Source: Candidatus Latescibacterota bacterium
GTDB taxonomy: Bacteria > Krumholzibacteriota > Krumholzibacteriia > WVZY01 > JAKEHA01
Length of the DNA: 64,000 nucleotides
Reading direction: 5' to 3'
Assembly (NCBI GenBank): GCA_963707635.1
Contig: OY970173.1
Location: 2,432,001 to 2,496,000, forward strand
Shown: positions 16,391 to 30,570 of the stretch, piece after piece
Numbering within the stretch: the stretch's first letter is position 1
Layout: every line of letters begins with the position of its first letter
The notes under the pieces: generated by a model
What the model was told of the DNA's origin: nothing
The model's input: the letters and a program-made list of their open reading frames with translations, nothing else
Databases searched by the model: none
Position numbers and translations under genes: made by a program

Positions 16391-17428
16391 CTAGCGCGAG
16401 CCCTCTCCTCCGTCTTCCTTGCGCGCCGCAATCGGTGCCGGCGGCGGCGGCGGGTTGTTGTTCAGGTAGTCGATCGCCGACAGCAGGAGCCCGCTCATGT
16501 ACTGGCGGTTGTGCACGCCGATACTCCGGTCCTCCTCGACCAGCAGGAAGTTCCAGATCGCCCCGGCCTCGTCCGAGGTTCTGGTTCCGGCCGTGGGCAA
16601 GCCGGTCGAGGCATTGAGGAAGCCCCGCCCGACGAGGAGGGTGCGCAGCGAATCCACGAGTTCGGCGGTCTCGGTCTGCACCCCATCGATGTCAAAGTTG
16701 GTCGTGGTGCCGTGGCAAGGCACACAGGCAGCGGTGTTGAGGATCTCGCCCTCCTCGTCCACCCAGCGCATGTTCCAGGTGTGACCGCCCACCTTGCTGT
16801 TCCGCGTGTATTTCATGTGACAGTCCCAGCACCCGTTCTCGGTGGCAGAACGGTGCTCGGTTTGCTGGTACGAGTAGCCCGCATACTCGTATCCGTTCGA
16901 GCCCATGATCATGTCGCCCTGCACGCTGTGGTGGGGACCCCAGCGATTGTTGGCGATGGTGACGGTTCCGCCCTCCACGTACGTTTCGACATTCTCGCGT
17001 GCGTGGTGGCACGAGGCGCACAGGTTTCCGAAGCCGAGGTCGAACTTGAACCCGTTCTGCAACGCCTGCGTCTCTGTCACGCGGAGTCTGAAGTCGCCGT
17101 TGGTGTGCGGCGCGTGGCAGGTGAAGCAGTGGATTGCGGTGGGGTTATCGACGTTGGCCGGCATCGTCCCGGTTTCGATCCGCGACACAAACCCCTCGCT
17201 GGTATGACACCCGTTGCACGGCGTCGTGCTGCGGTTGGTGTTGAGACTGCTCCCGTGAACGGAATGCTCCCATTGCAAGGTATTTGCAATGATCTCCGTG
17301 TCCTGGTCCGAGTGACAGTTGAAACACGTTTGTGGAGTGGTGTCCTCGGCCACGGTCGTCACGCTACGGTCACACGCGTAGAGCGACGCCGCGGCTGCGA
17401 CACACACCCAGATTCGAAGTTGTTTCAT
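16391..17428 (-). CDS. Hexaheme c-type cytochrome lipoprotein (putative outer-surface partner of the porin-cytochrome complex)
   Basis: Lipobox LYAC and six CxxCH (CFNCH, CNGCH, CFTCH, CASCH, CWDCH, CVPCH). GGAGG RBS before ATG 17428. Confidence 0.88.
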   Translation of the reverse strand: MKQLRIWVCVAAAASLYACDRSVTTVAEDTTPQTCFNCHSDQDTEIIANTLQWEHSVHGSSLNTNRSTTPCNGCHTSEGFVSRIETGTMPANVDNPTAIHCFTCHAPHTNGDFRLRVTETQALQNGFKFDLGFGNLCASCHHARENVETYVEGGTVTIANNRWGPHHSVQGDMIMGSNGYEYAGYSYQQTEHRSATENGCWDCHMKYTRNSKVGGHTWNMRWVDEEGEILNTAACVPCHGTTTNFDIDGVQTETAELVDSLRTLLVGRGFLNASTGLPTAGTRTSDEAGAIWNFLLVEEDRSIGVHNRQYMSGLLLSAIDYLNNNPPPPPAPIAARKEDGGEGSR

Positions 17429-17469
17429 CGTGGTTTCCCTCCTGCAGCGCCGGCTCATCGCCGGCTGTC

Positions 17470-29044: not shown

Positions 29045-30570
29045 AGCAATTGGTGTCCCGCCAGTCGTCCCCGCCGTCCGGGTGGTCGAATTCGAGACCG
29101 TCTTCGGACATTGCCATCTGCATGCGCTCCCCGCTTCCCTGGCGCAGGATGATGTGGCACGACGGTGCAGTCCCGCTTGATGACCCAGCCCTCCGCACTC
29201 TTCTTCTTGCCGTCGTGACAACGCATGCATCCCGGGAAGATGAAGTGGCCGATGTTGTCGGGGTAGCCTTCCCACCGCACCTTCATCTCGGGGAAAATAT
29301 TCAAGGAGAACTGCTTCTGGGTGGCCAGTACCGCGTCGTCGATGTCGACCCGACGCTTCTCGAAGACTTCCGGATACTTCTCCCGGTAGGCGTCCGGGAT
29401 CTTCGTCGCGATGGCACGGTGGGCCTCCTCTTCCGTCGCGTATTCCGCCTGCATCGCTTCGACGGCGATGCGCTTGATCTCCGGAAGCGTGACGTCGATC
29501 TGACCGGTGAGGAGCGCCTGGTCGATGGCATAGTCAGGCGAGCGGAACCGGTGGCTCGGCCGGTTGTGGCAGTCCATGCAGTCCATCCGGCGCGGGGTGG
29601 CGGCGGCGAGCTCCTCCTCGGTGAGCGGCTTGTCCTCGTCCTGGTAGACCGTCACGCGTCCGGTCACGCGATCGGTGATCCGGACCCACGGGATTTCCTG
29701 CCGCCGCGGGTCGCGCGCGATGTACTCGACCTTGGTGCCGATGTTCATGTGCCAGTGGATTCCCGCCGTCTGCCCGGTCTTGGGATCGCCTCCCCCGGTC
29801 TTGATCAGCAGGTTGATCGGCCAGTGGGTGGTCGAATCGTCGTACATGTAGTGGTTGTACTGACGCTGCTGCGCGCCGAAGAACTTCTCCGGCCAGTGGC
29901 ACTGCTCGCAGGTCTCCTGCGCCGGCCTGAGGTTCTTGATGGGCGTCGGGATGGGGCGCGGGTACTTGTTGAATGCGGCGGCGTACACCTGGTACGCGCC
30001 CGACAGCTTCGACTTCGCGTACCAGCCGGCGCCGGCCCCGACGTGGCACGCCGCGCACGACACCCGCGCGTGGGGCGAACCGCTGTAGGCGGTGTGCTCC
30101 GGCTTCATGACGGTGTGGCAGGTCGTGCCGCAGAACTCGACCGATTCGGTGAAATGATACGCCTGGTACCCGCCCACCACGGTGATGAGCGACAAGAGGC
30201 CGGTGCCGAAGATCGCGACGAAGAAGGCGTTGCGATGCGTGCTGCGGTTCAGATCGAGCTGCGGCCACTGGGGCGGGAGTTCGTCGACCTGCAGGCGGAT
30301 CCGGCGCCGCTTGCGCAGCATCCCGATCGGAATGAGCAGCACCCCAACGGCGAGGCAGACCGGAAGCACGAGGTAGACGAAGATACCGAGATACGGGTTG
30401 GATTCCCCGACCGTGGCGATGAGGACCAGGAAGAACAGCAGCGTGACGCCCAGCACGAGCGTAACCGCCGCCCCCGCGATGCTGAGCGAATTGTAGGCGA
30501 GCCTGGGGAGATGGATGCGTTTCCAGAACATGGCGACGGAGGCCGGTTGCGCGGCGTCGACGTGTTCCAC
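29016..30570 (-). CDS. ImcH-like NapC/NirT-family heptaheme inner-membrane cytochrome (one-base frameshift near 29164)
   Basis: Three N-terminal TMs, then FCGTTCH, CAACH, CEQCH, CMDCH and CMRCH. Removing one base in TGC ACC G TCG TGC CAC restores CTSCH and CYECH up to the stop at 29016. Start is 30570 or 30531. Confidence 0.85.

Follow-up and report, generated by a model that had tools for sequence, protein, structure and literature searches.

Genes of the multihaem cytochrome cluster

The stretch of DNA analysed here (the window) comprises 64,000 nucleotides of contig OY970173.1 from a Candidatus Latescibacterota bacterium, and it carries a putative extracellular electron transfer (EET) cluster at positions 16391..30570. 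A scan of the window for open reading frames (ORFs) and motifs found ten adjacent genes there, encoding a hexahaem lipoprotein, an outer-membrane barrel, an MtrA-like cytochrome, a nonahaem cytochrome, a cytochrome b, a Rieske protein, two CbcL-like proteins separated by a c554-like tetrahaem cytochrome, and an ImcH-family protein. The number of CxxCH motifs per ORF is 6 in the lipoprotein, 10 in the MtrA-like cytochrome, 9 in the nonahaem cytochrome, 13 in the first CbcL-like protein, 4 in the c554-like cytochrome, and 19 in the second CbcL-like protein. Over six frames the region has 66 CxxCH motifs, compared with a mean of 0.6 and a maximum of 2 in 50 shuffles and a median of 0 in genome windows of equal size (n = 225). 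Seven of the genome's 19 ORFs with at least two haem motifs sit in the cluster. A preliminary sequence-only reading of this DNA had described nine contiguous respiratory genes plus a porin with about 68 haem c motifs; all ten genes are present, and the total of 68 is made up of 66 intact CxxCH, one CX3CH, and one motif destroyed at a frameshift in imcH.

The barrel gene (17470..19062, minus strand) encodes a compact outer-membrane beta-barrel of 530 amino acids (aa), and its structure model (pLDDT 90.9) has 26 predicted strands and the MtrB fold. The best match in the fold search was MtrB (6r2q_B; E 7.4e-15, TMq 0.77), and superposition on MtrB covered 482 residues (Z 26.4, rmsd 3.0), with the next entry at Z 20.0. 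The sequence had no match in Pfam or NCBIfam and did not reach the PF11854 (MtrB/PioB) cut-off; its mature length is 505 residues vs. 649 for Shewanella MtrB, with 12% identity. PF11854 matched one of 56 members of the compact-barrel family, at E 0.02. A profile of the family matched a canonical PF11854 member (match 94.9%, E 4.4e-8), whose long loops the family lacks. Searching 1.84 billion proteins with the barrel profile gave 201 matches; the full-length ones among the 150 listed are 504-557 aa, and no canonical-length MtrB is found among these 150 of the 201. The profile matched none of five genomes of other lineages. The compact barrel is a distinct family of about 520 aa, divergent from PF11854 MtrB, and its gene adjoins an MtrA-like gene in all 20 loci examined.

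The neighbouring gene (19066..20019, minus strand) encodes an MtrA/DmsE-like cytochrome with a signal peptide, ten CxxCH motifs, and a C-terminal CX4CH. Its score against TIGR03508 was 155.7 bits, below the cut-off of 192.2, and its best PDB match is 6r2q_A, which we take to be MtrA (the structure file mislabels the chain). An extra C-terminal CX2-6CH occurs in 28 of 32 homologues, while the remaining four end otherwise; in one homologue this extra motif is a canonical CxxCH. Because of the extra C-terminal haem motif, this protein is likely an undecahaem cytochrome with 11 haems. The predicted arrangement is that it is likely held as a wire inside the barrel.

The third gene of the conduit (16391..17473, minus strand, likely start 17428) encodes a hexahaem lipoprotein whose structure model (pLDDT 84) has an OcwA/OmhA/NrfA-type fold and a C-terminal three-helix bundle. 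A Cys-Asp/Glu-Arg lipobox-like site is retained in relatives. OcwA was the best Foldseek match (TMq 0.55), and structural Z scores were 12.5 for OmhA, 12.4 for OcwA, and 11.2-11.5 for NrfA; NrfA, octahaem nitrite reductase, and MccA trail closely in both fold searches. Searching PDB by sequence gave no match, and comparison with PF22113 came to the cut-off only, with no passing stretch. None of the cluster genes scanned contains CxxCK, the motif of the NrfA active-site haem, and the lipoprotein has seven conserved non-motif His for six haems. An MtrC/OmcA-type decahaem identity was rejected, as the protein has six haems and a fold nearest to OmhA/OcwA. OcwA has been described as a surface terminal reductase with an NrfA-type fold, and from its model the lipoprotein is a candidate outer terminal cytochrome and surface reductase. 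The Mtr-like conduit proposed earlier thus stands in part: the MtrB-fold barrel does lie next to an MtrA-like cytochrome, but the conduit is not of the plain Shewanella type, since the barrel misses PF11854, the cytochrome scores too low for DmsE, and in place of MtrC there is the hexahaem lipoprotein.

Variants of this conduit were seen in other genomes. A divergent clade of compact barrels (about 24% identity; L023, L024, L031, and L032) is followed by an octahaem gene that replaces the hexahaem lipoprotein, and one lipoprotein homologue (L151) has 13 haems. Two loci from the Zixibacteria phylum (L140:5679-8390 and L142:834-3555) have a second decahaem gene and a one-haem protein of ~580 aa adjoining the compact conduit; the latter matches no Pfam family and is possibly another barrel type.

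At the other end of the cluster, imcH (29016..30570, minus strand) encodes an ImcH-family quinol oxidase with three helices and seven haems, assigned from motifs, hydropathy, and residue offsets. ImcH is defined by three helices, a CX3CH next to helix 3, and six CX2CH (Zhong and Shi, 2018; PMC6295460). Hydropathy places N-terminal transmembrane helices at 34-52, 62-80, and 115-133, and in the intact relatives (G012 and G001) ImcH has CX3CH beside helix 3 and six CX2CH. The window ORF has four CxxCH and one CX3CH before a frameshift that falls at the sixth CX2CH; one intact CxxCH and the stop (29016) follow in another frame. The frameshift results from one extra base near 29163. Because this base is missing from contigs of three out of three DNA runs and the gene is intact in relatives, the break is likely an assembly error and a true pseudogene is unlikely; a private mutation is a possible source of the extra base. 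A preprint on ImcH places E127, K173, Q179, and Y188 around haem-1 H137. The window protein has E, K, Q, and Y at -10, +36, +42, and +51 from the haem-1 His, offsets that match Geobacter ImcH. All four pocket residues are found in 11 of 19 homologues and K and Q in all 19 (a count that drops one ORF lacking the region). A PDB sequence search with ImcH gave no match. The published architecture and the pocket-residue spacing support identification as ImcH, as first proposed.

The first CbcL-like gene (23244..25400, plus strand) encodes a CbcL/MtrH/MtoC-like protein of 718 aa with 13 haems c, and the second (26234..29044, minus strand) encodes a protein of 936 aa with 19 haems c that belongs to a second clade. 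Both have an FdnI-like cytochrome b domain (PF01292, TIGR01583). Simple hydropathy gave four helices beyond the signal peptide in each, where six would be expected and 4-6 have been published. The paralogues are 28.8% identical, and six His in the membrane domain are invariant in 34/34 CbcL-like homologues. The haem number and size of both proteins fall inside the range published for CbcL/MtrH/MtoC (3-23 haem motifs and 416-1034 aa; Zhong and Shi, 2018; PMC6295460). A tree built by a quick method with no outgroup has two well-separated clades, found across several phyla. The claim of two CbcL-like proteins is upheld by the multihaem arm, the FdnI-like domain, and the six invariant His in both. 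Potential gating in CbcL has been assigned to residues V205/F525.

The Rieske/cytochrome b module is on the minus strand. A profile match and both Rieske boxes identify a Rieske [2Fe-2S] protein with a twin-arginine leader (22669..23100). The cytochrome b (21538..22662), which is the genome's sole PF00033 match, is unsplit and has seven predicted helices, His106/120/207/222, and PEWY. The nonahaem cytochrome (20219..21541; nine CxxCH) has, by hydropathy, an N-terminal signal and a C-terminal membrane anchor like that of cytochrome c1, and a homologue is present at 70 of 80 cytochrome b loci; it is likely the c1 replacement of the complex. These features agree with the Rieske/cytochrome b complex claimed for the locus. 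The Q-cycle is an established property of the Rieske/b family; from family membership the complex here would run one as well, which would make it a higher-yield entry. The tetrahaem c554-like cytochrome (25526..26116, plus strand; four CxxCH, PF13435 E 1.3e-22) has a signal peptide and is a candidate periplasmic shuttle. In Eisenbacteria-type and related genomes (L101, L107, and L129), 42-haem cytochromes of 1070-1311 aa were seen beside the Rieske module.

Transcription units, surroundings, and host genome

The 13-haem CbcL-like and tetrahaem c554-like genes are on the plus strand, and the remaining eight are on the minus strand. A single operon was rejected because two genes are on the opposite strand, and also in view of the predicted units: promoter- and terminator-like sites suggest four, namely imcH-cbcL19, cbcL13-c554, Rieske-cytb-nonahaem, and cytochrome-barrel-lipoprotein. 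Counting consensus matches alone, four promoter-like sites were seen vs. 1.8 expected. The conduit unit has a sigma-70-like promoter (20021..20048, minus strand) matching 11 of 12 consensus positions, and TTGAC...TATACT is found in several same-genus relatives. A divergent promoter region (23112..23245, both strands) separates the Rieske unit from the 13-haem CbcL-like unit, with promoter-like sites at 23141-23112 (minus) and 23216-23245 (plus). Between the convergent units is a terminator-like hairpin (26177..26203, plus strand) with an 11-pair stem followed by a T run.

A Rex-like operator with two mismatches to the consensus is located at 20075-20092 (G000:C1:464102), 27 bases upstream of the conduit promoter. 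Rex itself is encoded, and the genome has seven Rex-like boxes with two mismatches. Other Rex-like boxes lie before the cox/ACIII operon and, with three mismatches, before ccmE and a probable atp operon; boxes with one mismatch are found at decahaem starts in L020 and L021. Control of the conduit by Rex was rejected, as the palindrome is lost in same-genus relatives, which retain the half-site TCTAYGCAAAAC alone. In one metatranscriptome, contigs match Rieske, its junction with cytochrome b, cbcL-13, c554, imcH, and neighbouring regulator genes at 95-99% identity, and those listed include none for the conduit or cbcL-19. These were not accepted as proof of cluster expression, being contigs only, from one study, with possible DNA carry-over.

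The flank upstream of imcH (30698-34738, minus strand) encodes a response regulator, a PAS histidine kinase, and a GAF-domain protein, which are possible regulators of the cluster. A tRNA-Phe gene (16144-16219, minus strand) lies just downstream of the lipoprotein gene. A recent island was rejected despite this adjoining tRNA, as there is no GC shift (64.5% in the cluster vs. 66.2% in the genome) and gene order is conserved in the genus. Beyond it (10247-16106, plus strand) are genes for two secreted proteins with PA14 and FlgD-Ig-like C-terminal domains, one of which also has glucose/sorbosone dehydrogenase and PKD domains.

The host genome is 3.2 Mb and 96% complete. Among named organisms it is closest to Ca. 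Krumholzibacteriia (76-79% identity in cytochrome b, with the barrel and lipoprotein in agreement), consistent with the FCB lineage suggested by the sequence-only reading, and runs from bog, soil, and freshwater sediment contain close relatives. Maturation genes ccmB, C, E, and F, proposed as a check, were found elsewhere in the genome, and futalosine-pathway genes are present. Genes for O2 respiration are located away from the cluster (ACIII adjoining an aa3 oxidase, and a bd oxidase). NosZ is encoded, being present in five of the seven genomes tested, and the host genome has one secretin. In this 96%-complete genome no Fdh/Nar/Nap-type molybdoenzyme was found, the sole molybdopterin-family matches being ActB and a complex I-region gene; NiFe hydrogenase, NrfA, NirK, and RuBisCO were also not found in it, while other carbon-fixation routes were not searched. 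The possibility that the cytochromes are non-EET membrane anchors of formate dehydrogenase, hydrogenase, or Nrf was rejected, since a search of the genome found no such catalytic partner (formate dehydrogenase, NiFe hydrogenase, or NrfA).

Other cytochrome genes were noted in the genome. A second multihaem locus (L117:8011-13503; G000:C1:3052010-3057500) has 16- and 20-haem cytochromes beside a ferredoxin-fused YpdA-like flavin reductase. A five-haem protein of 976 aa (L116:5456-8386; G000:C1:2801455-2804385) with a DNRLRE domain and a T9SS-like C-terminal sorting domain is a candidate secreted cytochrome, and two UshA-like (seleno)protein fusions have c554-type tetrahaem domains (L114:5794-7053 and L115:7714-9234).

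Conservation and relation to described clusters

Eight same-genus loci were compared. All ten genes are kept in order and orientation in three (G012, G001, and G013, of which the G013 copy has frameshifts and the G001 copy is cut at the edge of the extracted region), and two of the eight have eight genes as far as the contig end. Identity within the genus is about 63-85% for the inner-membrane proteins, 49-58% for the barrel, and 36-73% for the lipoprotein. In other genera the modules are reordered (L035, L123, L124, and L030). Among 121 genomes of the host phylum, Krumholzibacteriota, the barrel was matched in 33, ImcH in 76, and cytochrome b in 30, and the compact barrel was matched in 49 of 81 genomes of the Zixibacteria phylum. 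Around the 19-haem gene in this latter phylum (20 loci out of 32 matches, chosen for longer contigs), a second CbcL-like gene was found in 17, ImcH in 9, the compact barrel in 5, and the Rieske module in 4. All inner parts together with a conduit are present at two of the 20: L134, with compact barrel and lipoprotein, where nine of the ten cluster parts are together, and L136, with a canonical MtrB.

Clusters of this type have been described. Castelle et al. (2013; PMC3903129) reported a "putative iron respiration" cluster (RBG1_768-781) in Zixibacteria RBG-1 with an MtrA-like decahaem, an MtrB-like porin, 13-, 11-, 19(c)+2(b)-, 6-, and 9-haem cytochromes, PetB, and PetA, and an ACIII with aa3 oxidase elsewhere in the genome. 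As in RBG-1, the cluster studied here combines at a single locus an MtrA/MtrB-type pair with genes for the 19-haem c/b, ImcH-sized, and 9-haem cytochromes, PetB, and PetA; orthology to the RBG-1 proteins was inferred from gene order and haem counts. Two monohaem cytochromes and an FeS/NrfD/Hmc set in the RBG-1 cluster are not among the ten genes here. The host genome does have an HmcB/HybA-like FeS and HmcC-like NrfD pair elsewhere (L113:6760-8707; G000:C1:936760-938707), with a two-component system and no hydrogenase found. The passages available of the 2013 paper do not use the names ImcH or CbcL, and they interpret the cluster as Fe(II) oxidation because they describe no extracellular cytochrome. 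The L136 locus (G176) has the RBG-1 gene order, and its proteins are identical to those of the window at 50% (19-haem CbcL-like), 38% (second CbcL-like), 45% (ImcH), 42% (nonahaem), 57% (cytochrome b), and 54% (Rieske). It has a canonical 749-aa PF11854 barrel, whereas the cluster here has the 530-aa barrel, the extra haem motif, and the hexahaem lipoprotein. The sequence-only reading had taken the combination to be undescribed as a single locus; this largely fails because the RBG-1 cluster of like make-up was published in 2013 and L136 has homologues in that order, and further papers describe sub-combinations.

Like Shewanella MtrCAB (PDB 6R2Q) and MtoAB/PioAB, the conduit has a 10-haem cytochrome adjoining a barrel of the same fold. 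Unlike MtrCAB, its third gene encodes a hexahaem NrfA-fold lipoprotein and not decahaem MtrC, the barrel is smaller and below PF11854, and the cytochrome, which carries an additional motif, scores under the TIGR03508 cut-off. The lipoprotein is 18-24% identical to OcwA (Thermincola) and OmhA (Carboxydothermus), whose solved folds are nearest to its own and which have nine and eleven haems, respectively, vs. six here, where the host is diderm and the partner an MtrB-fold barrel. OcwA-like cytochromes with porins have been reported in EET clusters of peat Acidobacteriota/Verrucomicrobiota (bioRxiv 10.64898/2026.05.27.727921).

In Rhodoferax, Gallionella, and Dechloromonas, mtrH/mtoC lies beside mtrAB, and R. 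ferrireducens has several quinol oxidases in one cluster; the portions consulted of the same survey report no mtrAB adjoining imcH (Zhong and Shi, 2018; PMC6295460). Mtr occurs together with ImcH and CbcL in D. acetexigens (Desulfuromonas). In contrast to Geobacter, which has one CbcL with 9 haems, the cluster here encodes a Rieske/b complex and CbcL-like proteins of two clades, one with 13 haems and the other with 19. Geobacter extHIJKLMNOPQS (PMC5877670) likewise groups a porin and multihaem cytochromes with Rieske/cytochrome b, but ExtI is phosphate-porin-like and ExtP/ExtQ are split. Karst porin-cytochrome clusters with ImcH/NapC and petBC (PMC13264449) are also similar as far as their layouts go, and the passages available do not mention CbcL. 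PCC4 (He et al., 2017) was rejected as a match, as its make-up differs and the text consulted has no Rieske. No paper was found that names an Mtr-type conduit together with ImcH, CbcL, and Rieske/b at a single locus, nor one that describes the compact barrel family; figures, bioRxiv supplements, and subscription papers were outside the scope of both searches, and Figure 6 of the karst paper (PMC13264449) and the supplement of the peat preprint (10.64898/2026.05.27.727921) may hold closer layouts. What is new here is the compact barrel family and an ImcH-based argument for reduction; the cluster type itself is already known.

Direction of electron flow

Our favoured reading is that the cluster probably mediates outward electron transfer from menaquinol, through several quinol-oxidising entries, to extracellular acceptors; we hold this with moderate confidence. 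Menaquinol would be the electron donor because futalosine-pathway genes are present. ImcH, the two CbcL-like proteins, and the Rieske/b-nonahaem complex would each oxidise it, and the four entries would not be equal in the energy they yield or in the potential at which they work. In Geobacter, ImcH serves high-potential acceptors with proton release to the periplasm, and CbcL operates at low potential with a lower energy yield. By analogy, the Rieske/b complex would run its Q-cycle for high-potential acceptors, ImcH would release protons on the periplasm side, and the CbcL-like proteins would perform low-yield, cytoplasm-side oxidation for low-potential acceptors. The periplasm may be bridged by the c554-like tetrahaem or by the 13- and 19-haem arms themselves. 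Haem chains of the c7 type extend about 1 nm per haem, and with such spacing the 19-haem arm could span the periplasm. The 10-11-haem wire would sit within the barrel, and when neither O2 nor N2O is available the lipoprotein, exposed at the surface, would reduce humic quinones or Fe(III)/Mn(IV) oxides.

Several lines of evidence favour outward flow. As far as the consulted parts of the 2018 survey go, the one role given to ImcH is quinol oxidation in reducers of Fe(III) (Zhong and Shi, 2018; PMC6295460). The lipoprotein is without CxxCK, and among solved structures its fold is nearest to two surface reductases, OcwA and OmhA. The barrel superposes on MtrB and adjoins an MtrA-like gene. No alternative partner enzymes were found in the 96%-complete genome, and O2 respiration is served elsewhere in it. 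Finally, the ten-gene order recurs in the genus, and nine of the parts are together at L134.

Other observations weigh against this reading. The conduit is separate from the other modules in three of the eight same-genus loci, the three modules are megabases apart in a single-contig genome (G023), and 14 of 15 family-f6 genomes with the barrel gave no cytochrome b match. The NrfA fold scores of the lipoprotein (Z 11.2-11.5) are nearly level with OcwA, and the NosZ and aa3 oxidase encoded in the genome are possible sinks for the Rieske module. CbcL/MtrH/MtoC and MtrAB-type conduits run in both directions with no distinguishing sequence feature, according to the parts consulted of the survey (PMC6295460); the 2013 paper took the Zixibacteria cluster as Fe(II) oxidation (PMC3903129); and a Caldithrix Rieske/b pair has been tied to nitrate/nitrite reduction. 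Gene function, location, and redox behaviour are moreover read here from sequence and predicted folds.

Electrons could instead flow inward, from Fe(II) or reduced humics through the conduit, downhill to aa3/NosZ and uphill to menaquinone via a Rieske/b complex run in reverse and the CbcL-like (MtoC-like) proteins. This would match the 2013 interpretation (PMC3903129) and the presence of MtoC-type proteins with mtoAB in Fe(II) oxidisers (PMC6295460); high-potential sinks are encoded (aa3 oxidase and NosZ), and both iron oxidation and reduction have been suggested for a Krumholzibacteria metagenome-assembled genome. However, the 2013 interpretation was based on a missing extracellular cytochrome, whereas here a lipoprotein with a surface-reductase fold follows the barrel. 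The link of ImcH to quinol oxidation alone (PMC6295460) and the failure to find RuBisCO in the genome (with other carbon-fixation routes not searched) also argue against it, and we consider inward flow unlikely.

The modules may also be functionally separate, with the conduit and ImcH/CbcL serving extracellular acceptors, the Rieske/b-nonahaem complex and c554 mainly feeding NosZ/aa3, and clustering reflecting shared haem supply and regulation. The four predicted transcription units, the shuffled or distant modules in relatives, the compact barrel at one of 80 cytochrome b loci (many of them truncated by contig ends), and the frequency of NosZ (five of seven genomes) would fit such a division. 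Yet the modules occur together in differing orders in two phyla (L013, L035, L123, L134, and L136), and the aa3 oxidase already has an adjoining ACIII. We give this division little credence. Reduction of a soluble N or S oxyanion by the NrfA-fold lipoprotein, in the periplasm or at the surface, is very improbable: NrfA, octahaem nitrite reductase, and MccA are close in both fold searches, but OcwA is in the same fold family, there is no CxxCK motif, conserved His suffice for six bis-His haems, and nitrite and sulfite need no trans-outer-membrane conduit.

Outward flow remains our preferred reading, and a broader version of it can be put forward tentatively, as a less likely possibility. Uncultured FCB lineages may share a four-gear metal- and humic-respiring chain that combines a Q-cycle Rieske/b complex, ImcH, and CbcL-like proteins of two ancient clades, the 19-haem arm in one of them being long enough to cross the periplasm. 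The chain would leave the cell by a conduit class so far unrecognised, made up of a 26-strand barrel with trimmed loops, a wire of 11 haems that brings its last haem to the surface, and an OcwA-fold lipoprotein in the Gram-positive style. As the Pfam MtrB model does not see this class, extracellular respiration would go unnoticed in about one in four of the Krumholzibacteriota and over half of the Zixibacteria genomes sampled, and the 2013 Zixibacteria interpretation would be reversed to reduction.

Marker screens based on PF11854 would miss the compact barrel because it misses that family. The three-gene conduit is <4 kb, and conduit and CbcL clades are compact enough for tests in Shewanella or Geobacter mutants, which would tell if an MtrB fold this small is functional and if CbcL-like proteins in general are gated by potential. 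If outward flow is true, two uncultured phyla would have members in soils, bogs, and sediments that are overlooked reducers of iron oxides or humic matter, with a bearing on carbon turnover and methane suppression.

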